Assembly (NCBI GenBank): GCA_045613125.1
Contig: JAZLAM010000020.1
Span: 4,782 to 68,781, forward strand
Origin: Alphaproteobacteria bacterium
GTDB lineage: Bacteria; Pseudomonadota; Alphaproteobacteria; RF32; CAG-239
Length of the DNA: 64,000 bases
Direction of reading: 5' to 3'
A program made the translations under genes and the position numbers. How positions within the stretch are numbered: position 1 is the first letter of the stretch; each line of letters begins with the position of its first letter. A model generated the notes under the pieces. It made no database searches. It was not told the origin of the DNA and saw only the letters and a program-made list of their open reading frames with translations. Shown one piece after another: positions 5,824 to 16,769 of the stretch.

Positions 5824-6750
5824 CTAAGCAAAAATTGTATCGGTTGTGTAATCTTTATAGGCAAAAGCACTTCCGTCAATATAACGATGATTTTTGTTTA
5901 ATGCTTCAATTTCTTGCATGTCTTGATTGTCTAGTTGTATGTTTATTGCTTTTAAGTTATCTTTAAGATGTTGTTCTTTAACAGATTTCGGAATAACAAT
6001 AACACCTCGATTTATTTGCCAACTAAGTAATACTTGTGCCGGAGTAATATTTAGTTTTTGAGCAATGTTGATTATGGTTCTATCATTTAATAAATCAAAA
6101 TTATTTGAAGATACACCGGAACCTAATGGAGAGTAGGCTGTAACGGTAATCATATTTTTACGGCAAAAATCAATTAAATCTGTTTGTGTTAAATAAGGAT
6201 GAGATTCAATTTGATTAACAGCAGGTATGATGTTGCATTCAGATATTATATGTTCAAGATTTTTTTTACCGAAATTGGAAACTCCAATTGCCTTAGTTAA
6301 TCCTTGTTTTTGAACTTTTTCCATTTCTTTATATGTTATGGTTATATCTAATTCACTTAGAGATATCATATCTTCATCACTTTGTGGAAGTAAGGTCCCT
6401 TTTTTTTGAGCTATAGGCCAGTGCATTAGCCATAAATCTAGATAATCGAGTTTTAATTCTTTTAATGTTTGTTTTAGTTCAGGTAACACATCCTGTGGAT
6501 TATGAGAATCGTTCCACAGTTTTGAAGTAACAAAAATATCTTCTCTTTTTAGATTATCTTCCCTGAATGCGTCAGTGAATGCTTGTCCGATTTCTTCTTG
6601 ATTATTATAAATTGAAGCGCAGTCAAAGTGTTTATATCCTAATTTTAATGCCCATCTTATGGCTTGATAAACCTCTCCTGCATTAGATCTCCAAGTTCCT
6701 AGACCAATTACAGGTATATTTGCACCAGTGTTAAGTGTTATATATTTCAT
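5824..6750 (-). CDS. aldo-keto reductase (2,5-diketo-D-gluconate reductase-like)
   Basis: AKR signatures: GLGTW near the N-terminus, KLWN, and the IPKS C-terminal motif. Confidence 0.85.
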   Translation of the reverse strand: MKYITLNTGANIPVIGLGTWRSNAGEVYQAIRWALKLGYKHFDCASIYNNQEEIGQAFTDAFREDNLKREDIFVTSKLWNDSHNPQDVLPELKQTLKELKLDYLDLWLMHWPIAQKKGTLLPQSDEDMISLSELDITITYKEMEKVQKQGLTKAIGVSNFGKKNLEHIISECNIIPAVNQIESHPYLTQTDLIDFCRKNMITVTAYSPLGSGVSSNNFDLLNDRTIINIAQKLNITPAQVLLSWQINRGVIVIPKSVKEQHLKDNLKAINIQLDNQDMQEIEALNKNHRYIDGSAFAYKDYTTDTIFA

Positions 6751-6883
6751 GTTTTTCTCCTAAAAATGTTGTTTTAAGAGAATATAATTATCATATAGAA
6801 AAAATCCACTATGTAAAATATAAAACTTGTATTTGAGCTGAAAGCGTAATATTGTAAATATATAGTTTTAAAAGGAGATGGTT

Positions 6884-8341
6884 ATGCGTTTTTATAAAAT
6901 TTTATGCGTGTCAGCATTATGTTTTGCAACTCAAGCTTTTGCTTATGATAATATCAAAAATCTGGAAATAAGTATTTATAATGATAATTTAGCTTTAGTA
7001 AAAGATACCAGAGATATCAAACTTACATTAGGTAATAATGATATTGCATTTACCGGTGTAGCCTCTCAAATTAAAGCTGAAAGTGTAATGATACTCGGAA
7101 AAGATATTAATGTATTGGAACAAAATTATGATTATGATTTAATAACTCCTCAAAATATTCTTCAAAAATCAATAGGAAAAGATGTTAAAACCATTGTGCA
7201 AAATCCCACAACAGGAGAAAATATATTTAGCAAAGCTACAGTTTTGAGTGCTGTCGGAACAAAGCCGGTTTTAAAGTTTGATTACGGAATTGAAACAGAT
7301 TTTAGCGGACGTTTGGTTTTTGAACAATTGCCGAAAAATTTACAACAAAAACCAACTTTAATGGCGAAAATATATAGTCCTAAAGCCGGAATTCAAGAAC
7401 TTGAACTTGCATATCTTACTAATGGAATTTCGTGGAAAAGTAATTATGTGGCACGTATTGTTGATGATAAGTATCTAAATTTAACATCATGGGTTGCTAT
7501 TAATAATACATCAGGAGCAGATTATAACAATGCTCAAATTCAGCTTGTAGCCGGTGATGTAAATCAAGTTAAAGAGACCGGAGTTATGACAAATAGAGTT
7601 ATGATGGCAAAGGCAGTCACTTTAGAAACAGCTAATACGGATGCTATGGGAAGCAGAGAAACTAACCAACTAAGCTCTTACCAACTTTATACTTTGCCTA
7701 ACAGGGCTGATATTAAGGATAATCAAACTAAGCAAATTAGTTTGTTTGAACGTCTAAATGTTGATTATACAAAAGAAGGACGACTAAATTCTAGTCTTTA
7801 TTTTAATGGAGGATATCAGGCGGAATTTGAAAAAACACATCCTTTAGTTTATTATATTATCAATAATACAAAATCATCTGGTTTGGATTTACCTTTACCT
7901 GCAGGAACAATCAGGTTTTATGAAAATGATGATAATGATAATATGCAGTTTATAGGAGAAAATAATATTAATCATACGGCAAAAGGTGAAAAACTTGAGT
8001 TAAGACTTGGTAAAATGTTTAATGTCTTTGTAAATGGTAAAATTATTGATGTAAATGAAGTTTCATCAAGTAGAGTAGCAAGTGCAAATAACGGATGTTA
8101 TAGCGCAGATGTAGAAAAAGATTATAAAGCGGAAGTAGAATTTAATAATGGTGGAAATGATGATGTTAATATTGTTTTCACGCAAAATCTTGGTCAAGAT
8201 GTTAAAATGATGCAAGAAAATATAAAAGGTAAAAATAAAAATATTAATCAATATGAATGGAAGATATTGGTTTTAAAAAATTCAAAAGTAAATTTGAAGT
8301 TTACAGTTAGGGTAAAATCAAGAGAACGAATTTGTAATTAA
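6884..8341 (+). CDS. secreted DUF4140/DUF4139-like (MuiA-family-like) protein
   Basis: Signal peptide (CVSALCFATQAFA). N-terminal pattern (isIYnDnlAlVkdtRdikLtlGnNdIaFtgvaSqIkaeSvmilG) resembles DUF4140. Length about 485 aa and predicted beta-rich. Start moved to the ATG at 6884, which has good SD spacing to aggag at 6873-6877. Confidence 0.45.
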   Translation: MRFYKILCVSALCFATQAFAYDNIKNLEISIYNDNLALVKDTRDIKLTLGNNDIAFTGVASQIKAESVMILGKDINVLEQNYDYDLITPQNILQKSIGKDVKTIVQNPTTGENIFSKATVLSAVGTKPVLKFDYGIETDFSGRLVFEQLPKNLQQKPTLMAKIYSPKAGIQELELAYLTNGISWKSNYVARIVDDKYLNLTSWVAINNTSGADYNNAQIQLVAGDVNQVKETGVMTNRVMMAKAVTLETANTDAMGSRETNQLSSYQLYTLPNRADIKDNQTKQISLFERLNVDYTKEGRLNSSLYFNGGYQAEFEKTHPLVYYIINNTKSSGLDLPLPAGTIRFYENDDNDNMQFIGENNINHTAKGEKLELRLGKMFNVFVNGKIIDVNEVSSSRVASANNGCYSADVEKDYKAEVEFNNGGNDDVNIVFTQNLGQDVKMMQENIKGKNKNINQYEWKILVLKNSKVNLKFTVRVKSRERICN

Positions 8342-8352
8342 TTTATCAAATT

Positions 8353-8385
8353 GCTCCTTAAAGTTTCTTAAGGAGCTTTTTTTTA
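8353..8385 (+). terminator. rho-independent terminator
   Basis: gctccttaa/ttaaggagc stem with a 6-nt loop, followed by T8. Confidence 0.65.
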
Positions 8386-8393
8386 TTTTTTTC

Positions 8394-8422
8394 TTGCAAC
8401 TTACTGAAAAATTTGGTAAATT
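8394..8422 (+). promoter_or_regulatory. putative sigma70 promoter (TTGCAA, 17 bp spacer, TAAATT) for the 1159-aa lipoprotein gene
   Basis: Hexamers and spacing read directly from the sequence; about 115-nt leader to the ATG at 8540. Confidence 0.35.
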
Positions 8423-8539
8423 GTGAGTGATAAAAAGTTTTTGTGTTTATTATGGAGAATTGAAAAGATTTTTCAAAACCGTTTGTTATACGCAAAAGCT
8501 TTAATTTTGAATATTAATCATTAAAATTTATTTTATATT

Positions 8540-11500
8540 ATGGCAAAAATTAAAACTTTTGCAGCCGTTGTTTTATGTGCTGTAATGTTCATTTCCTCTT
8601 CATGTGAGGAACAAATGGAATCAACCTATGTAGGTTTTTCTGAAGGAATTAAAAGTACAAATATGAAGTACGAAAGTATGGAATATATTGTAAAGTTTGA
8701 CACGATAGTGAATGAATTATTCACTGTTGAGCAGAATGTACTAGGAGACATCGTAGAGTATGAAAACGATCAAGCAATTGACGTAAGTAGTTTTTTCTAT
8801 GAGTTAGATCTTAACGTTAAATTTAACGTTGAACCACAGCAGGTTTATGTTCTAAAAAAGGAACAACTGAGTTCTGTTGCGATGACATCGTCAAATGTAG
8901 CAGATAAAGTTGTTAAAGACAGTACGGAAGATGATTTCACCCTTACTTCGGTTGGATGTGAATATGAGTTTGTTTTTAACGAGGGCGAAAAAGTTGTAGC
9001 AAAAAGTGTATATGAGAAAGTTTCTCATATGGACACAACTTTTTCATATGCTGAAATCAGTCGGGTATCGTATAAGAAAAGCGATAGTAAACTGGATGAG
9101 GTAAAGACAAATGAGGATTCGATCGTGCATGATGTAAATTTCTATTTTGATGTAGAAATGATTATCAAGCGAGATACCGATGAAACAAGGACGTATGTGG
9201 TAAGAGTACCTGTGGAAAGAATTTACATGGAAGAGCTGGCAGAAGCTGTAACTGAGATTAAGGATTTGGAGTATAAGGGAAAATTTGCCGTAAGGGAAAG
9301 CGAACTTTATACAGTTGAACAATATGATTTAGGTTATTATGTGACGACATTGAAGGACAAAGAAGTTACCCGTAAGATGTTCAAATATGATCTGGATTTG
9401 AATGTTAAGTTCGATATCAATCCTAAAAAAGTGACAGTTGATAGTCCAAACAAATTAACGGATGTTGCGCTTAAGAGTGCGACGGCAGGAGATGAAGTTA
9501 AGCAAGAAATTAACCAAGATGAGTTCACCAAAGCTACAGTTGAACGTGACTATGAGTTTGTGTTCAATGAAGGTGAGGTTGTAACGGCAAAATCTTTATA
9601 TCAATATCTTTATAACAAAGATATGACATTTGCATATGCTGAGATTAGAAGTGTAACATATAAGAGATATGATACAAGTCCTAATCCTAACTCAAGCGAA
9701 GATGTAAAGATTTATGATATCGACCTTTATTTTGAGGTTGATATTGAGGGTAAGGAAGGTGCTAATATTGACGGAAAATATGAAGTAGTAGTTTCATATC
9801 AACGTGTATACGAGGTACCTGATACCCCCGTTTCTGAGACGGTGATAGAGAACGTAGAATATGTGGGTCAATTTGATACCATAACCAAAAAACTCTTTAC
9901 CGTAAGACAAGAAGTCAATGGTGATTTTGTAACCTACACTCAAAATAATGAAGAAATATCAAAAGAGCATTTTGAGAGAAAATTAAATCTTGAGGCAATT
10001 TTTGATATTCCTGCTGTTGTTTACGTAAATAGCGAACAAGAACTTGCAGATGTCAGTTTGACCAGCAGCTCAAAGGATGGCAACAAGGAAACAAAGTCAA
10101 GTTCGGATGGCTTTACCACTATAACTCGTTCGCAAAATTATAACTTTAAGTTTAATTGCAATGAGAATGTGGTTTCAGCAACTGAATATGACCGAGAAAC
10201 CTATGGTGATACATTGTTGATTTATTCTTCAATTGATAATATTACATACAAAAATTGTAATGTTGAAAAGAACGAAGCAAAATCTAATGTTGATTCAACC
10301 GTATATGATGTTATGCTTTACTTTAATGTAAATGTAAAACGTCATGTCAAAACAACATCTAAAACCCATCTTGTTGCTGTTCCTTATGCTCGTGTTTTGA
10401 AACATGTAGCAAAAGATACTCTTGTAAAGAAAAATTATCGTGATGTAAGAAGAAAAATTCTTTCAAGCACTACGGAATTAGTTTCTTTTACTGAGTATGA
10501 AATTTGGAGTGTTTCAGGCGAGAAAAATGCTAAGACAATCTCTAAAGTTTTGAACTTTGGTTTTACTAATCCATCAAATCAGACAGTTTATACAACCAAT
10601 ACTAACTATAAGACAATGTCTAATGGTTCTGTAGAGGGAAAAGAAACTTCAAGCAAGGATGGAAATTGGACGGTTTATACTCAAACTAACAATTATTCAT
10701 CAACAGCTGACAATGGAAATAAGTCCTTTAACAATAAGTATTCATATAATAGCCAAAAAGCTATTTATACAAATGAACACTATACTGTTGAATTTGCTTA
10801 TGGCAATTGGTCTGTAAACGAAGGTTCAAGTAATGTCGGTTCTAAGAATGGTGAAACAACATATAATGGTAATGCATACGAAGTTTATCCATATGTAAAC
10901 AACGTATCTTACACTTATGATGTTGAAGATGATTCTTATAGTGGTAATGGACAGTCAAATGTGAATGTTTGCATTGAAAAACCGGAAGAAGATATTCTTG
11001 TAGCTATCAATTATCGTGATGTAAGAAGAGAAATTCTTTCAAGCACTACGGAATTAGTTTCTTTTACTGAGTATGAAATTTGGAGTGTTTCAGGAGCGAA
11101 AAACGCTAAGACAATCTCTAAAGTTTTGAACTTTGGTTTTAATAATCCTTCATCACAGACAGTTTATACAACCAATACTAACTATAAGACAATGTCTAAT
11201 GGTTCTGTAGAGGGAAAAGAAACTTCAAGCAAGGATGGAAATTGGACAGTTTATACTCAAACTAACAATTATTCATCAACTGCTGACAATGGAAATAAGT
11301 CATTTAACAATAAGTATTCATATAATAGTCAAAAAGCTATTTATACAAATGAACACTACACTGTTGAATTTGACTATGGAAGTTGGTCTGTAAGCGAGGG
11401 TTCAAGCAATGTCGGTTCTAAGAATGGTGAAACAACATATAATGGTAATGTATACGAAGTTTATCCATATGTAAACAACGTATCTTACACTTATGATGTT

Positions 11501-12019
11501 GAAGATGATTCTTATAGTGGTAATGGACAGTCAAATGTGAATGTTTGCATTGAAAAGGAAGTCGGTTCTATTATTCCTGAAGAATGGGGTAAAATTATCG
11601 GCGCAGGTATTTCAGCTGTTCCGGCAGATGATGTAAATGGTACTTATGCTAAAAAGTGCTTGTGTATCAGGACTGAAAACGGAGCTGTTTCTGTTGTTTT
11701 TGACATGAACTCTACTGTTCCTACTGTAGAACAAATTCTGGGAGGTAACTTTGTAGTAGGTGATTATGATGCAACATACAACAGTGGTGTGTATACTAAT
11801 GGTGAATGGGAGCCAGCAATTGCTAAGGATTTGAGTGATCGTATTGCATATTATCAAGGTGAAACTTGTATGCGTAATATTCGTCACACTACTTTGCAAC
11901 GTTGGAATTGGAGAAATGGTAATATGTCAACAGTTGTTGATGGTTATGTATTCTCAGTTTCCAACAATGGAACCATTACAATTATGTATAATGGACAATC
12001 TGTTATGCAAATGCGTTAA
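8540..12019 (+). CDS. large repetitive surface lipoprotein (1159 aa), Asn/Tyr/Ser/Thr-rich, internal repeats
   Basis: Signal peptide with lipobox-like FISSSC. Three divergent ~200-aa repeats, each containing motifs such as EYEFVFNEGE..VAKS.Y and FYFDVE. Then two ~97% identical 192-aa repeats and a unique ~150-aa C-terminal domain. No known catalytic motif. Confidence 0.6.
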   Translation: MAKIKTFAAVVLCAVMFISSSCEEQMESTYVGFSEGIKSTNMKYESMEYIVKFDTIVNELFTVEQNVLGDIVEYENDQAIDVSSFFYELDLNVKFNVEPQQVYVLKKEQLSSVAMTSSNVADKVVKDSTEDDFTLTSVGCEYEFVFNEGEKVVAKSVYEKVSHMDTTFSYAEISRVSYKKSDSKLDEVKTNEDSIVHDVNFYFDVEMIIKRDTDETRTYVVRVPVERIYMEELAEAVTEIKDLEYKGKFAVRESELYTVEQYDLGYYVTTLKDKEVTRKMFKYDLDLNVKFDINPKKVTVDSPNKLTDVALKSATAGDEVKQEINQDEFTKATVERDYEFVFNEGEVVTAKSLYQYLYNKDMTFAYAEIRSVTYKRYDTSPNPNSSEDVKIYDIDLYFEVDIEGKEGANIDGKYEVVVSYQRVYEVPDTPVSETVIENVEYVGQFDTITKKLFTVRQEVNGDFVTYTQNNEEISKEHFERKLNLEAIFDIPAVVYVNSEQELADVSLTSSSKDGNKETKSSSDGFTTITRSQNYNFKFNCNENVVSATEYDRETYGDTLLIYSSIDNITYKNCNVEKNEAKSNVDSTVYDVMLYFNVNVKRHVKTTSKTHLVAVPYARVLKHVAKDTLVKKNYRDVRRKILSSTTELVSFTEYEIWSVSGEKNAKTISKVLNFGFTNPSNQTVYTTNTNYKTMSNGSVEGKETSSKDGNWTVYTQTNNYSSTADNGNKSFNNKYSYNSQKAIYTNEHYTVEFAYGNWSVNEGSSNVGSKNGETTYNGNAYEVYPYVNNVSYTYDVEDDSYSGNGQSNVNVCIEKPEEDILVAINYRDVRREILSSTTELVSFTEYEIWSVSGAKNAKTISKVLNFGFNNPSSQTVYTTNTNYKTMSNGSVEGKETSSKDGNWTVYTQTNNYSSTADNGNKSFNNKYSYNSQKAIYTNEHYTVEFDYGSWSVSEGSSNVGSKNGETTYNGNVYEVYPYVNNVSYTYDVEDDSYSGNGQSNVNVCIEKEVGSIIPEEWGKIIGAGISAVPADDVNGTYAKKCLCIRTENGAVSVVFDMNSTVPTVEQILGGNFVVGDYDATYNSGVYTNGEWEPAIAKDLSDRIAYYQGETCMRNIRHTTLQRWNWRNGNMSTVVDGYVFSVSNNGTITIMYNGQSVMQMR
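10415..11566 (+). repeat. near-perfect tandem duplication, 2 x 576 bp (192 aa), inside the lipoprotein CDS
   Basis: aattatcgtgatgtaagaaga... at 10433 recurs at 11009 (offset 576 bp). Only scattered substitutions (e.g. K/E, E/A, T/N, A/D, N/S, A/V at protein level). Confidence 0.85.
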
Positions 12020-12040
12020 ATCTTTTCACATTATTAATTA

Positions 12041-12066
12041 CGGCGCCTTTACAGGCGCCGTTTTTG
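12041..12066 (+). terminator. rho-independent terminator
   Basis: cggcgcc tttaca ggcgccg hairpin, GC-rich in an AT-rich background, followed by T5. Confidence 0.7.
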
Positions 12067-12086
12067 TGTTAATAAAATTATAACAC

Positions 12087-12692
12087 TTAATCAGAGTGTT
12101 TTTTCCACTTATAAAAATAAACATAACAAAAATAGTCATTATCACAAGCATTATTACAAGCCTCTTTGATATCAGCTAATGTATAGCTTGTTTTAATCTC
12201 AAGATTATAAACGTTATCTGTAATTGTTGAGTATATAAAATTATGATCACCACTATAAGTTACAGCACTTATCGCATTATAATTAATCGGTAATGCAGTT
12301 TCCCAATGATGGGATAAAAAATCTACACAAAGATTTATACGATTACTTTCTCTAAAAGTTATTCCAAAGGCACCATAGCTTAATTGTATCTCACCACCAT
12401 TAGGAAGCGTACATTTATAAGACGCATCGCACAACGCTTTATCTACTATGCCTAATTTTACTGCATTTTGATTAGATATTTCTTCATCTTCGTCAGAGTT
12501 TTTTAACAACAATTCATTCAAGCCCATCAAAATATTAGAAACAATATCTACAGTTTTATTCATTTTTTGTTTGTACATGGCTTTAGAATAACCGGCAATG
12601 CCTCCAACTGACAAGACACCGATGATGGCCAAGACGCCAAGCATTTCTACCATACTTCTTCCGTCTTGATTGTTTTTAAATAATTTCATCAA
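12087..12692 (-). CDS. type IV pilin-like protein (prepilin-type N-terminal cleavage/methylation domain), orphan
   Basis: Class-III signal: short basic leader, cleavage-site Gly, then RSMVEMLGVLAIIGVLSV with Glu at +5. C-terminal Cys pairs (CDASYKC; CNNACDNDYFC) typical of a pilin D-region. SD aggag 8 nt upstream of the ATG. Confidence 0.6.
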   Translation of the reverse strand: MMKLFKNNQDGRSMVEMLGVLAIIGVLSVGGIAGYSKAMYKQKMNKTVDIVSNILMGLNELLLKNSDEDEEISNQNAVKLGIVDKALCDASYKCTLPNGGEIQLSYGAFGITFRESNRINLCVDFLSHHWETALPINYNAISAVTYSGDHNFIYSTITDNVYNLEIKTSYTLADIKEACNNACDNDYFCYVYFYKWKKHSD

Positions 12693-12722
12693 AAAAAACT
12701 CCTAAAAATGATATTTAGTCAA

Positions 12723-12749
12723 ATTATAAGTTTATTTTTTTTTTTGCAA
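12723..12749 (-). promoter_or_regulatory. putative pilin promoter: -35 TTGCAA, 15-bp spacer containing an A11 homopolymer, -10 TATAAT (minus strand)
   Basis: Minus strand reads cTTGCAAaaaaaaaaataaacTTATAATttgac about 40 nt upstream of the SD/ATG. The homopolymer is T11 on the plus strand at 12735-12745. Confidence 0.45.
12735..12745. repeat. homopolymeric T11/A11 tract inside the promoter spacer (candidate slipped-strand phase-variation switch)
   Basis: Counted directly from the sequence. Confidence 0.8.
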
Positions 12750-12956
12750 GCATTAAGTGTAGAACTTAGGGAAAAAAAGGTAAAAAAGTCGTTCTTCATC
12801 ACAAATCAGAGCCAAGTTTACTTGACTCTGAAGAGTATATTTTAAGGAAAATATATTCGATCGCTTGGATACTTCGTAAATAGCATTGGCTTAGACGAGG
12901 AAAAATTAAACATTATGAGGGGTTTCAAGGACGACAGGATTTATGTCGGTATAACG

Positions 12957-12982
12957 AAAAGGCTCTCAAAAGAGAGCCTTTT
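12957..12982 (-). terminator. hairpin terminator downstream of the fadL-family gene
   Basis: aggctctc aaaa gagagcct perfect 8-bp stem, with T-run on the minus strand side. Confidence 0.6.
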
Positions 12983-13024
12983 CTATAGAAATCCCTGTTT
13001 ACTGAGGATATCTATTTTACTTAA

Positions 13025-14269
13025 TTAGAATTTATAATTAAGTGATAAACCAAACAACTGAACAGAGTTAGAAAAATCTACTGAAGTTCTTGATGTGTCA
13101 TTTGGTGTAATATTTTGTGTATTCATATGCGCTTTGTGAGCATAAATATAAGTATAAGACAAATCAAAACTCAATTTTTCGTTGTATTGATAGTTAAGAC
13201 CTGTAGAATACCATAAGCGGTCAGAGTCCGGAATACGAGGAGTTCTGTGTTTTAAGCGAGCAGCAGCTTGATCATAAGCCAAACCTAAACGCCATTTCCA
13301 TTGATTATCAATTTGATAACTTGCACCAACGGCAAAGAAGTTTGTATCACGCCATTTTTCTTTAACTTGAGAAACTTGAGATTTTGTATCTTCTCCCATA
13401 ATCGTCAAGTAATCAAAAGAACTCCAAAATACACGTTGATATTCTGCCATAACAGCCCATTTTTCACTTACTTGGTGGAAAATGCCAATTGAAGCCATTG
13501 CAGGAGTTGTTAAGTGGGCACTGATATCTTGATTAAGCAAAATGCTAGGTGCTGAAGATTCAATTTCACCTTTTAATTTATGCTTAACTTCACTTCTGTA
13601 CCCCAAACCGATACGAGTATTATCGTTAAATTCATACAAAGCACCTAATTGATAACCGATATCAAATGTGTCACCTTCTAAACGAGTATGATATGTTCCA
13701 TATACAGTATTCGTTAATTTTGCTTTCATATATTGTAATTGAGCGCCAGCCCCTATTGATAATTTATCAGTTGCTTTATATGCAAGAATCGGAGTAACCG
13801 TAACGGAGGTAACTTTTGAAGTGATACCATGGTCAGAACCTGCCCAATTTTTATCATATTTTGTTACCATACCATAAGGAACGTTCATTGTAACACCTAA
13901 AAATGTTTTTTCATCAATCTGATGTGAAAAAGCCATATTAGGAGCAACTGCAGCATGCACAATGTTGTTTATATCAGAATCTCTATGTGTTTCACCACTG
14001 TTGTCTATATATTTAACATTTTCAGCTCTTGCTTTTGGAGCAATGTATGTCCCGCCAATGTTAAATTGAGTTCCGCTTTGTCTTGTTAAACCAGCTGCGT
14101 TAAAATAAGCATAAGAATTGTTTTCGGCACCTGCTGTTGCACCTGCAAAAGCGTTACCTTGAGCTGCGGCTGACTGTTCACGTAAATGGAAACCAGCAGC
14201 ATTTGCATTGGCAGCTAATAAAACAGTTCCCAATGCTGTTAAAGTCAAAAATTTATTCATATTATTCAT
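13025..14269 (-). CDS. fadL: outer-membrane long-chain fatty acid/hydrophobic compound transporter, FadL/OmpP1/TodX family
   Basis: Signal peptide ...ANANA followed by AGFHLREQSAAAQGNAFAGATAG N-terminal hatch motif. Beta-barrel-like alternating pattern and terminal aromatic residue (…NYKF). Confidence 0.8.
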   Translation of the reverse strand: MNNMNKFLTLTALGTVLLAANANAAGFHLREQSAAAQGNAFAGATAGAENNSYAYFNAAGLTRQSGTQFNIGGTYIAPKARAENVKYIDNSGETHRDSDINNIVHAAVAPNMAFSHQIDEKTFLGVTMNVPYGMVTKYDKNWAGSDHGITSKVTSVTVTPILAYKATDKLSIGAGAQLQYMKAKLTNTVYGTYHTRLEGDTFDIGYQLGALYEFNDNTRIGLGYRSEVKHKLKGEIESSAPSILLNQDISAHLTTPAMASIGIFHQVSEKWAVMAEYQRVFWSSFDYLTIMGEDTKSQVSQVKEKWRDTNFFAVGASYQIDNQWKWRLGLAYDQAAARLKHRTPRIPDSDRLWYSTGLNYQYNEKLSFDLSYTYIYAHKAHMNTQNITPNDTSRTSVDFSNSVQLFGLSLNYKF

Positions 14270-14579
14270 TCACTTTTTCTGTTAATCCAAAAGTAACTTA
14301 ATATGCATCAATACCTTATTTATTGTTTATTATAATTTTGTATATTTGCGGCATATTTGAAATAAATGTACATAATATGTTACTAGGGCCTTATAGACAA
14401 TAAAAAAACAAAATGCAAGTGTTAAAACCTATCCCCGTTGATAAAATTTTAAAAAATAAGTAAAAACAATATGTTATATGTAGCATTTTTTCGAGATATA
14501 CACTAGACTTTTTTTTATCTTTACAAAAAACAGTTTTTTGTATACAACACAATATATGTTGTAATAATGGAGAAAAACA

Positions 14580-16769
14580 TTGAATAAATTTATGAGATTC
14601 TGTTTAAGAATGCTGTTTACCTTATTTAAAAGCAGATGTAAAATTCGCTTTGATTTGAAAAAACTCCCTAAAAAGGGTGTTTATGTGTCTAACCATGTAT
14701 CTTATCTAGATCCGCTATTGTTATATGCTTTTTTGCCCGGCAATCCGGTATTTGCATTAAATGGACATTTATATCGTAGAGGCTGGATTAGAAATTTAAT
14801 GAAATATGCTGATACAATTCTTTTTAATCCGATTGAACCATCAGATATTAAAGAATTGATTGCAAAAGTTGACAGCAATCGTTTAGTTGTCATTTTTGCT
14901 GAAGGGCGTATTACTGAAAATGGTGGATTGATGAAAATCTACGAGGCTCCGGGGTTGGTTGCAGATAAATCAAAAGCTCCGATTATTCCTGTGTGGATTG
15001 ATGGCCCTCAATATGGGTATTATTCAAAGACAAAAGGAAAATTACCTCATCGTCCTTTGCCTAAAATACGCATTACGATTGGTGAACCGAGACCGTTTAA
15101 GTTAAAAGATGAGTTACGTCGTCAGCGTGATCACATTAGTAATGAAGTTTATACAATTTTGCGTGATATGCAGTTTGAAATTAACTATAAACCAAATATT
15201 TCACTGTTTGCACAATTAATGAAAACAGCTAAAGTACATTCTAAAAAAGGTTTCTTTTTTAAACGTCCGTTAGTTATTGAAGATATTAATCGCAAACCCA
15301 ATTCATTTAAAGATTTGATTATTAAATCTTTTGTCATTGGTAAATTTTTCAAAAAAAGAACTTCTCATTTTGAGCAAATTGGTTTGATGTTGCCAAATAC
15401 TATCGCTGCGGTTTGCACTTTGTTTGGATTATCTGCATATGAGAGAATTCCGGTAATGCTTAACTTTTCGGTTGGGGCAAAGAATGTTATGTCTATGTGT
15501 AAAACCGCACAGGTTAGGATGGTAATTACGTCTTTAGCGTTTGTTAGAACGGCAAAATTAGAATCGGTAATTGAAGTTTTAAAATCTAATGGTATAGAAG
15601 TCTTTTATTTAGAAAGCATGGCTAAGAAAGTTAGTTTAATTGCTAAAATAGGAGCTTTCTTGCGTTATAAAGTTAAACGTGTCCCACATAAAGATGGTGG
15701 AAATAAAAAGGCAGTTATATTGTTTACATCTGGTTCTGAAGGAGCTCCAAAAGCTGTTGTGTTGAGCCATGCCAATATCATATCTAATATAAAACAGTTG
15801 GCAGCGCTTGAAACACTTAATACTACGGATTTAGTGTTTAATGCATTACCGATGTTCCATAGTTTTGGTTTGACAGTAGGTACTTTGTTCCCATTATTTG
15901 AAGGTAGTAGGTTGTTCTTGTATCCATCTCCTCTACATTATCGTATTATTGCAGAATTAGTATATGAGCTAGGTGCAACCATTATGTTTGGAACAGATAC
16001 ATTCTTTAGAGGATATGGCAAGATTGCTCATCCTTATGATTTCCATAATATGCGTTTTATGTATGGTGGAGCAGAAGCTGTTAAATTGGATACTCGTAAT
16101 ATGTGGATGGAACGTATGGGAATAAGAATGATGGAAGCTTATGGTTCTACAGAATGCTCTCCTGTTGTTACCGGAAATAATAGTGTATTTAATAGGTTTG
16201 GTTCAATAGGTAAATTATTGCCGGCTATGCAGTATAAAATAGAACCAGTTCCTGGAATTGATAAAGGTGGAGAACTATGGGTCAAAGGTCCGAATGTGAT
16301 GTTAGGGTACTATATGCCTGATAATCCTGGGGTTTTGGTTCCTCCGGAAGATGGATGGTACAAAACAGGTGATGTTGTGGAAATAGATGAAATCGGTTTT
16401 GTATATATCAGGGATCGTATTAAACGATTTGCTAAAATCGGCGGAGAGATGGTTTCTTTAACGGCTGTGATGGATATGGTTGTGAAAGCTTATGAGTGGA
16501 TGGGACCGGATTTTGAATATGGTGTTGTTGCTATTCCGCATGAAAGTAAAGGCGAACAGATAGTTTTGGTAACAAATAATAAACAAGTTAAGCAAAATGT
16601 TCTGCACGAGTATGTTAAAAACAATGGTTTATCAGAGTTGTTTATGCCACGTATAATAATGTATCGAGATACTATACCAACATTTGCAACAGGTAAAACA
16701 GATAATATTACTTTAAAAAGAGAAGTTCTTGCCGAATTGGAACAACAAGATGTTAAAAAAGCAAGTTAA
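14580..16769 (+). CDS. aas: bifunctional 2-acylglycerophosphoethanolamine acyltransferase / acyl-ACP synthetase (Aas-like)
   Basis: N-terminal PlsC-type acyltransferase HX4D motif (SNHVSYLDP). C-terminal AMP-binding domain (TSGSEGAPKAV, YGSTE, GWYKTGD). Alternative ATG at 14592. Confidence 0.8.
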   Translation: MNKFMRFCLRMLFTLFKSRCKIRFDLKKLPKKGVYVSNHVSYLDPLLLYAFLPGNPVFALNGHLYRRGWIRNLMKYADTILFNPIEPSDIKELIAKVDSNRLVVIFAEGRITENGGLMKIYEAPGLVADKSKAPIIPVWIDGPQYGYYSKTKGKLPHRPLPKIRITIGEPRPFKLKDELRRQRDHISNEVYTILRDMQFEINYKPNISLFAQLMKTAKVHSKKGFFFKRPLVIEDINRKPNSFKDLIIKSFVIGKFFKKRTSHFEQIGLMLPNTIAAVCTLFGLSAYERIPVMLNFSVGAKNVMSMCKTAQVRMVITSLAFVRTAKLESVIEVLKSNGIEVFYLESMAKKVSLIAKIGAFLRYKVKRVPHKDGGNKKAVILFTSGSEGAPKAVVLSHANIISNIKQLAALETLNTTDLVFNALPMFHSFGLTVGTLFPLFEGSRLFLYPSPLHYRIIAELVYELGATIMFGTDTFFRGYGKIAHPYDFHNMRFMYGGAEAVKLDTRNMWMERMGIRMMEAYGSTECSPVVTGNNSVFNRFGSIGKLLPAMQYKIEPVPGIDKGGELWVKGPNVMLGYYMPDNPGVLVPPEDGWYKTGDVVEIDEIGFVYIRDRIKRFAKIGGEMVSLTAVMDMVVKAYEWMGPDFEYGVVAIPHESKGEQIVLVTNNKQVKQNVLHEYVKNNGLSELFMPRIIMYRDTIPTFATGKTDNITLKREVLAELEQQDVKKAS

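Follow-up and report, generated by a model that had tools for sequence, protein, structure and literature searches.

The window, by which we mean the whole 64,000-nucleotide stretch of DNA that was analysed, contains a gene for a modular lipoprotein in which a 576-bp unit stands twice, head to tail, and this arrangement could represent a fresh mutation or it could represent an older, inherited duplication whose two copies have been kept alike. We addressed this question by comparing the units with each other and with the homologous genes of other genomes. The layout of the gene is given in Table 1. Its designation as a lipoprotein gene in the first-pass annotation was correct: the protein begins with a hydrophobic segment (signal-peptide h-region FAAVVLCAVMFI), and Cys22 is invariant across the 31 aligned homologous sequences. 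In these two respects the protein resembles bacterial lipoproteins processed by Lgt, LspA and Lnt, but its own lipobox, ISSS↓C, is atypical, carrying SSS at positions -3 to -1 against a consensus of L-[AS]-[GA]-C. Many homologues have canonical lipoboxes (e.g., VIGC, LVSC, and LSSC). Terminator-like hairpins flank the gene on both sides, and it is apparently transcribed as a unit by itself.

Table 1. Positions in the window of the lipoprotein gene, its modules, and the hairpins beside it. SP, signal peptide.
Feature	Position	Strand	Basis or remark
Terminator-like hairpin 3' of the upstream DUF4139 gene, between the DUF4139 and lipoprotein genes	8353..8376	+	
Whole gene, 1159-aa modular lipoprotein, SP-A1-A2-A3-B1-B2-C	8540..12019	+	ORF list, translation
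Signal peptide with lipobox-like ISSS↓C end	8540..8605	+	MAKIKTFAAVVLCAVMFISSSC; Cys22 codon 8603-8605
A1 module, old ~205-aa all-beta repeat	8606..9244	+	BLASTP unit mapping; AF2 pLDDT ~90
A2 module	9245..9859	+	BLASTP unit mapping, AF2
A3 module and linker to B1	9860..10411	+	BLASTP unit mapping, AF2
B1, first 576-bp (192-codon) unit	10412..10987	+	aa 625-816; 5' edge 10412-10432 diverged
B1/B2 junction	10972..11022	+	codes for IEKPEEDILVAINYRDV; KPEED junction also in L008 and L006
B2, second unit	10988..11563	+	aa 817-1008; 93.9% nt and 92.7% aa identity to B1
C module, ~150 aa, most conserved domain	11564..12016	+	identity across the family
Intrinsic-terminator-like hairpin, 9-bp stem (7 GC pairs), then T run	12040..12061	+	21 nt past the stop codon

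The duplication is genuine, tandem, and in frame, and what it doubles is an entire all-beta module of 192 residues, B, that folds on its own. The direct repeat, with a spacing of 576 nt, occupies positions 10412-11563, in frame within the ORF and with unit limits that are codon-aligned; the first-pass annotation had described an in-frame 576-bp tandem duplication at 10415-11566, within 3 nt of these limits. Self-comparison at an offset of 576 gave 83-100% identity per 30-nt bin between ~10430 and ~10970 and 10-47% elsewhere in the gene, so that the similarity at this offset is far above chance. Tandem Repeats Finder, run on 8-15 kb, failed to detect the 576-bp repeat because its maximum period is 500, and no paralogue of the lipoprotein gene was found elsewhere in the window. 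Each B repeat is predicted by AF2 to be a globular folded domain, with a model of B2 plus C (mean pLDDT 95, pTM 0.72) that is all-beta and has ~13 beta strands per B unit; the full-length model reached a pTM of 0.35, and its inter-domain geometry is therefore unreliable. The three A modules share 32-40% identity with one another by BLASTP unit mapping. Comparisons of A with B, A with C, and B with C by hhalign were not convincing (best probability 10.6%), and A and B are therefore handled as separate module types.

The two B units had been credited with a mere handful of differences, but counting gave 35 differences in 576 nt (93.9% identity) and 14 in 192 aa. Approximately 16 of the nucleotide differences are synonymous and ~19 non-synonymous, corresponding to a dS of 0.15 (0.13 in the core), a dN of 0.042, and an omega of ~0.28 (0.16 in the core). 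Derived changes are evenly divided, with 8 in B1, 8 in B2, and 19 ambiguous. The differences are densest at the 5' edge, where 7 of the first 21 nt differ as compared with 22 of 548 in the core, an 8-fold excess (Fisher P = 3e-5). The longest perfectly identical blocks measure 105, 92, and 64 nt, and a test for clustering of the core differences into conversion tracts, based on the 105-nt block, was not significant (P = 0.19), meaning that a direct mosaic signature of such tracts is absent. Given the dS, the even polarity, and an edge far more diverged than the core, the duplication does not qualify as "very recent," as had been claimed for it.

The omega values indicate that both B copies are constrained, and purifying selection acts on both. 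This bears on whether the duplication was fixed because B1 and B2 each bind something different and their functions are diverging by neo- or sub-functionalisation, which we consider very unlikely. Several of the 14 amino acid differences do change charge (K/E, E/A, and A/D), and relatives with ancient multiple B modules (P0033, P0036, and P0041) have retained diverged copies. It is opposed by the core omega, which is well below 1, by replacements that are not in excess outside the linker, by B copies that are up to 100% identical in other genomes, and by the frequency of relatives with a single B or none.

We were also concerned that the second copy could be an assembly artefact, produced by a mis-join or by placing two strain haplotypes in tandem, or conversely that more than two true copies had been partly collapsed. 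Short-read contigs do stop in repeat units in this family: two metagenome-assembled genome (MAG) contigs (L006 and L008) start within a B repeat, and a third (L009) starts within the A2 unit, of which L002, a relative 99.9% identical to L009, has two tandem copies. These breaks support the earlier remark that the repeat is an assembly hazard, and they carry a practical warning, as the gene is a recurrent short-read MAG breakpoint whose lengths and copy numbers in databases are unreliable. Collapse could also have hidden extra B copies in the window. An artefact, however, would give identical copies, and the units found here differ at 35 positions in a coding-like pattern, preserve the reading frame, and meet at a distinct junction; in addition, the two-B layout and its junction peptide recur in assemblies made independently, with different assemblers and from different samples. 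We therefore regard an artefactual origin as extremely unlikely.

To place the duplication in time, we turned to relatives of the protein. We found 30 homologues, confined to uncultured gut Alphaproteobacteria, the window itself coming from a gut alphaproteobacterium of uncultured type, and in a set of 1.84 billion proteins the family makes up 83 representative clusters. A search for strains of the same species returned a closest match of only 78% aa identity, and looking up the exact protein gave no record; a metagenome scan with the window protein found no relatives, and with the alignment as query it picked up a single distant locus (L023). The gene diverges much faster than its neighbours, with 52-59% aa identity for the window protein as compared with 91-92% for Aas and 83-87% for FadL, and the locus order of the window (AKR-DUF4139-gene-FadL-Aas) is the same in L008. 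The closest relative, L022/P0001, contains one B, which stands at a dS of 0.46-0.47 from either window copy.

Two-B genes are present in other genomes as well. The window, L008, and L006 agree in register and in the period of 576, and all have KPEED as their junction peptide, written with differing synonymous codons among the three. KPEED differs from both edges of the window's own units, HVAKD on the left and EKEV on the right. Within a genome the B copies are 93.9% (window), 96.1%, and 93.5% identical, while between genomes B identity is 72-80%. Three type-II two-B proteins (P0013, L017, and P0031) have the junction "IAIVKP" in common, and their B copies group by genome and not by position. 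The junction-linker DNA is no more similar between genomes than unrelated edges are, and the left edges joining A3 to B are missing from the L006 and L008 contigs, which are truncated, so that the case for shared ancestry consists of junction peptide, period, and register. Microhomology was considered as a cause of the recurrent breakpoint and rejected, as the sole common string, GGAAG, would yield EKEED where EKPEED is observed. Separately, a type-II B unit sits in an otherwise type-I protein (P0002/L011).

A possible, if somewhat unlikely, explanation of these data is that the window lineage duplicated B after its split from L022/P0001, with simple divergence and no gene conversion, and that the other two-B genes (L008, L006, P0013, L017, and P0031) arose in parallel, selection for intact domains having produced the same boundaries. 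The single B of the closest relative fits this, as do a B1-B2 dS of 0.15 that is below the 0.46 to L022, differences that are evenly polarised and unclustered, the lack of detectable junction DNA conservation between genomes, and the existence of fresh duplications in the family (A2 of L002, 100% over 561 nt, and the B core of L001, 100% over 513 nt). It would, however, need the same 576 period, register, and breakpoints to have arisen in at least three type-I and at least three type-II lineages; KPEED fits neither edge of the window units; uniform divergence does not predict the 8-fold excess at the edge; and at a dS of 0.15 even this event would not be "very recent."

The common period and KPEED junction, together with B identities of 94-96% within genomes as compared with 72-80% between them, favor an older, inherited B duplication kept alike by gene conversion, with occasional loss or gain of a unit, and we hold this to be the likelier account. 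Gene-conversion homogenisation had been offered in the first-pass annotation as the alternative to recent origin, and of the two it is the better supported. The duplication is thus probably not new in the window lineage and most likely arose in an ancestor that the window lineage has in common with two or more further lineages of species rank. Gene conversion within the gene would then have held B1 and B2 at ~94% identity, so that the dS of 0.15 would show when the copies were last homogenised, not when the unit was duplicated. The same homology would permit occasional unequal recombination, deleting or adding a unit, and so would account for family members differing in module number. Because the closest relative, L022, has a single copy, the inherited duplication requires a secondary loss of B there. 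The A and B modules may be spacers that set a conserved C "head" apart from the lipid anchor at the N terminus, in which case module number would set length and reach and alter the exposed surface, as in the Periscope proteins discussed below.

Consistent with gain and loss of units, the family ranges from 0 to 4 A modules and from 0 to 5 B modules. The commonest layout is 3A1B; others are 2A1B, 4A1B, 3A2B, 1A3B, 1A4B, 1A5B, 2A0B, and 1A0B. Comparative evidence is direct in one instance: L002 has exactly one 585-bp A unit more than L003, although the two loci are 99-99.98% identical across 13 kb, the A2-orthologous unit being tandemly duplicated in L002 (100% nt identity) and single in L003, so that whole-domain copy number shifts between near-identical strains. 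In L001, the B copies are identical for 513 nt after a diverged edge of ~55 nt. The proposal that such units expand and contract to give size-variable proteins accordingly stands at the level of the family, on evidence from members of which the nearest found is 78% aa identical to the window protein; the window itself has two B copies only. A dependence of expansion and contraction on RecA may be presumed.

The head-plus-spacer design fits the distribution of C, which is the most conserved module by sequence (53-88% identity across the family as compared with 27-57% for most A units) and the only one in ~200-aa members, which consist of a lipobox, an acidic linker, and C. C alone matches many such short proteins, themselves carrying lipoboxes, and one ~200-aa member shares its MAG with two long paralogues. 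No profile match was found in Pfam, NCBIfam, or PHROGs for the protein or for its distant relatives, and a PDB sequence-profile search returned no match. Foldseek searches with the full-length model, and with the B2 plus C model against PDB and BFVD, gave only noise (TM ~0.1), and databases name the family no further than "hypothetical protein." One could suppose that A, B, and C are undescribed folds making up a gut-alphaproteobacterial, lipid-anchored, periscope-like family with a putative host-, glycan-, or phage-facing C head, in which gain, loss, and cassette exchange of modules, as exemplified by the type-II B unit of P0002/L011, are the main source of surface variation; we offer this tentatively and think it unlikely in full. 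To our knowledge, the low-GC uncultured gut Alphaproteobacteria are almost unstudied, and we know of no work on their envelope proteins. The locus offers a fast-evolving modular lipoprotein family with high-confidence predicted domains, for which no relatives among known proteins were detected.

Repeat-containing surface-protein genes can undergo concerted evolution by gene conversion or unequal crossing-over. The window family resembles such intragenic tandem repeats in having units that are more alike within a genome than between genomes, in having unit edges more diverged than the interior (window and L001), and in a copy number that differs between near-identical strains. It departs from them in that the conversion-tract test in the window was not significant and in that common origin is argued here from junction peptide and register only. 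Because tandem domain repeats, concerted evolution, and unequal recombination are all well known, the biological surprise is modest.

The closest known concept for the window lipoprotein, by analogy, appears to be that of the Periscope proteins, surface proteins of bacteria in which high DNA identity between tandem domains lets the gene recombine internally and its product vary in length (Whelan et al. 2021, PNAS; PMC8201768), with examples including Sgo_0707 (SHIRT), SasG/Aap, Rib/alpha C, Esp, and CdrA (PMC8201768). As in those proteins, the repeats of the window family are long tandem units that are whole folded domains by AF2 prediction, adjacent repeats are highly identical in DNA (94% in the window and 100% over 513-561 nt in L001 and L002), repeat number differs among close relatives, a conserved non-repeated domain (C) lies distal to the anchor, and the repeats disrupt short-read assemblies. 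The differences are that the window has two high-identity copies, and the family 0-5 B and 0-4 A modules, where classical cases have tens; that the protein belongs to a diderm alphaproteobacterium and is anchored by an N-terminal lipid, not through LPXTG, T1SS, or T5SS; that the modules are large (192-205 aa) and without a Pfam match; and that surface exposure and rod shape are putative, the localisation features visible in the sequence being the signal peptide and lipobox Cys only. As its relatives bear differing domain numbers, the window gene is an uncharacterised new example of a known, length-variable type of bacterial protein and not a fresh mutation.

The first-pass annotation was right that a head-to-tail, in-frame repeat of 576 bp lies within the lipoprotein gene, and its placement of the repeat agrees with ours (10412-11563) to within 3 nt. 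We found a direct repeat at ~10413-11560 with a start-to-start spacing of 576 nt, enclosed in a single ORF of 1159 aa (8540-12019, + strand); the unit length equals 192 codons and so keeps the reading frame. When the gene was compared with itself at an offset of 576, identity was 83-100% per 30-nt bin from ~10430 to 10970, versus 10-47% over the rest of the gene. TRF did not report the 576-nt repeat, because its longest period is 500; its sole result in the region, a 14-nt tandem repeat inside module A2 (9588-9619; 2.3 copies, 83% matches), is probably insignificant.

Coordinates of the codon-aligned B units and of the hairpins flanking the lipoprotein gene
Feature	Position	Strand	Remark
Terminator-like hairpin	8353-8376		after upstream DUF4139 gene
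B1	10412-10987	+	codon-aligned unit, aa 625-816
B2	10988-11563	+	codon-aligned unit, aa 817-1008
Terminator-like hairpin	12040-12061		after lipoprotein gene

Between B1 and B2 there are 35 nucleotide differences in 576 (93.9% identity) and 14 residue differences in 192, several-fold more than the "handful of positions" first described. The nucleotide differences are unevenly spread, with 7 in the 21 nt that open the unit versus 22 in the 548-nt core (Fisher P = 3e-5); within the core, their clustering was not significant (longest identical run 105 nt, permutation P = 0.19). The three longest perfectly identical blocks measure 105, 92, and 64 nt, which is enough, in principle, for homologous recombination, and the 6% divergence between the copies would be expected to lower its rate. 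By the Nei-Gojobori method, dS between the copies is 0.15 and dN 0.042; in the core (codons 8-190), dS is 0.13 and dN 0.02, giving an omega of about 0.16. Polarized with three outgroup units, 8 changes are derived in B1 and 8 in B2, with 19 ambiguous. We conclude that both units are intact, are gathering changes, and are under purifying selection, and that, given this dS and the derived changes in both copies, the duplication is not "very recent" as had been proposed. The nearest relative found, protein P0001 at locus L022 (78-80% aa identity), carries a single B unit with a dS of 0.46-0.47 from either window copy; therefore, B1 and B2 last shared an ancestor after the split from this relative.

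We considered whether B2 could be an artefactual duplicate of a single B copy. Such a duplicate would equal its template, whereas the window copies differ in a coding-type pattern; this pattern, the number of differences, the distinct in-frame junction, and the occurrence of the same architecture in independent assemblies argue that both copies are real. Further B copies in the window may have been collapsed during assembly. The suspected assembly hazard is borne out among relatives: the contigs of L006 and L008 start inside a B unit (L006:1-355, L008:1-180), and that of L009, 99.87% identical to L002, starts inside an A2 unit which is present twice in L002 (L009:1-375). With three MAG contigs ending inside repeat units, truncation is evidently common among published MAG family members, and copy numbers read from them are unreliable.

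The protein begins with MAKIKTFAAVVLCAVMFISSSC. All 31 aligned sequences have Cys22, and homologues have canonical lipoboxes (such as VIGC, LVSC, and LSSC), so the protein can reasonably be called a lipoprotein. The signal peptide is followed by A1, A2, and A3 (~205 aa each), B1, B2, and a C-terminal domain, C, of ~150 aa, making a five-module array plus C. The A units are tandem repeats much older than the B pair and upstream of it (8606-10411; mutual aa identity 32-40%), and hhalign of the A, B, and C profiles gave no convincing relationship (best probability 10.6%). AlphaFold2 modeled the full protein as all-beta with long strands (mean pLDDT 79.7, pTM 0.35), and B2+C alone with a mean pLDDT of 95.0 and a pTM of 0.72. 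In the full-length model (m14fa749bb3db), pLDDT is only 28-75 over residues 625-856, from B1 into the beginning of B2; near-identical neighbors may be confusing the alignment-based prediction. The protein had no match in Pfam-A or NCBIfam, no significant match in PHROGs, and none at E <= 1 when all PDB sequences were searched by profile; ten distant relatives had no Pfam match above cut-off. Foldseek with the full-length and B2+C models against PDB and BFVD gave none at E <= 1e-3 (TM about 0.1).

With a terminator-like hairpin on each side, the lipoprotein gene appears to be transcribed separately from its neighbors. Its surroundings are ordinary chromosome (SecD/F, Ca/Na antiporter, aldo-keto reductase [AKR], DUF4139, FadL, Aas, MetRS, PPDK; window GC 32.8%), and the order AKR, DUF4139, lipoprotein, FadL, Aas (window 5824-16769) is conserved in L002-L005, L008, and L009. 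The lipoprotein diverges fastest at this locus, at 52-59% aa identity versus 91-92% for Aas, 83-87% for FadL, 73-77% for AKR, and 62-63% for DUF4139. The DUF4139/MuiA-like gene (mucoidy inhibitor family; 6878-8341, +) adjoins the lipoprotein gene in orthologous loci, with a terminator-like hairpin between them. Just downstream, a 201-aa ORF (12087-12692, -) has a weak prepilin-type N terminus (NCBIfam E = 4e-4), and stretches 70-75% identical to its first ~45 residues lie near the family loci of other genomes (L002, L003, L012, and L013). Elsewhere, a 2027-aa ORF (36763-42846, -) has as its sole Pfam match a short N-terminal Peptidase_M48 segment (residues 76-129), the other ~1900 residues being without a match.

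A word-indexed search returned 30 homologues, and an exhaustive representative search of 1.84 billion proteins only 83 clusters at E <= 1e-3. All 18 loci from species-representative genomes are from MAGs, 17 labeled (uncultured) Alphaproteobacteria and one Proteobacteria; where record names tell the source, it is faecal, colon, or human gut. Several genomes carry two or three paralogues. The commonest architecture is 3A+1B+C; we also found 2A+1B+C (P0025, P0026, P0028-30), 4A+1B+C (P0003), 3A+2B+C (window, P0013/L001, L017, P0031), 1A+3B (P0041), 1A+4B (P0036), 1A+5B (P0033), and, with no B, 2A+C (L019) and 1A+C (L020). Members of ~200 aa consist of a lipobox, an acidic linker, and C, nothing else, and one of them shares a MAG with two long paralogues. 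C is also the best-conserved module (53-88% identity versus 27-57% for most A units). Its conservation and the C-only members suggest that C is the functional core and that A and B modules have been inserted between C and the lipid anchor. Two homologues are mosaics: P0002 matches the window protein at 72-88% identity in A1-A3 and C but at only 49% in B, where it has a unit of the other sequence type (SEPALQWIYT), and L011:2-1369 is likewise 79% identical in A3, 52% in B, and 83% in C. Such sequences suggest cassette-like exchange of B between lineages.

The size variation by unit gain and loss anticipated by the first-pass annotation is found in the family. L002 (P0003) and L003 (P0006), from different samples, share the window's gene order, are 99.0-99.98% identical over ~13 kb, and differ by exactly one 585-bp A2 unit; the two A2 copies of L002 are 100% identical over 561 nt. 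This pair is direct evidence of fast unit-number change, as is L001 (P0013), in which a B duplication has the window's period of 576 nt, with copies 100% identical over 513 nt and a diverged 55-nt 5' edge; its ~90%-identical relatives have one B each.

Tandem B units that agree with the window's in period and register occur in L006 and also in L008, which is the orthologous locus and is followed by FadL and Aas. The junction peptides of the window (CIEKPEEDILVAINYRD), L008 (CIEKPEEDQFVKRAYRD), and L006 (CVDKPEEDKLVKKSYRD) all contain K-P-E-E-D, with different synonymous codons in each, and the junction differs from both the present left edge (KHVAKD) and the right edge (EKEV) of the window's own units. 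B copies are 93.9%, 96.1%, and 93.5% identical (nt) within the window, L008, and L006 genomes, versus 72-80% between them, which supports the suggested gene-conversion homogenization. A second type of B has a junction, IAIVKP-xDK, common to P0013, L017, and P0031, with EKP in the terminal copy; these copies group by genome, not position (97%, 95%, and 90% aa identity within; 79-89% between). The data are most simply explained by a duplication that predates these lineages, and we consider an inherited duplication with gene conversion somewhat probable. Three points leave a lesser probability for repeated, lineage-specific duplication at identical breakpoints: the L006 and L008 contigs lack the 5' parts of the genes, divergence has left the junction DNA uninformative, and the B core of the window shows no conversion tracts. 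Under inherited duplication, conversion would homogenize the B interior over and over while the 5' edge escapes, and some lineages (L022) would have collapsed the two-B array to a single copy.

These changes would be driven by unequal homologous recombination (RecA-type) and gene conversion among the units, the A and B modules may be spacers setting the distance from C to the membrane, and exposure to an external selective agent may be involved. The mechanism is familiar, but the protein family, the folds predicted for it, and the clade that carries it are unexplored. Among described proteins, the Periscope class comes closest in concept: folded domains are encoded by long DNA repeats of high identity, similar strains differ in repeat number, and a stalk projects a functional domain (PMC8201768). 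The window lipoprotein shares high-identity tandem repeats, predicted to be folded domains, and copy-number variation at the level of its family; as to a rod-like stalk, its full-length model has a pTM of 0.35. It differs from Periscope proteins in having only two copies, an N-terminal lipid anchor in a diderm, and large modules (192-205 aa) without a known domain family.
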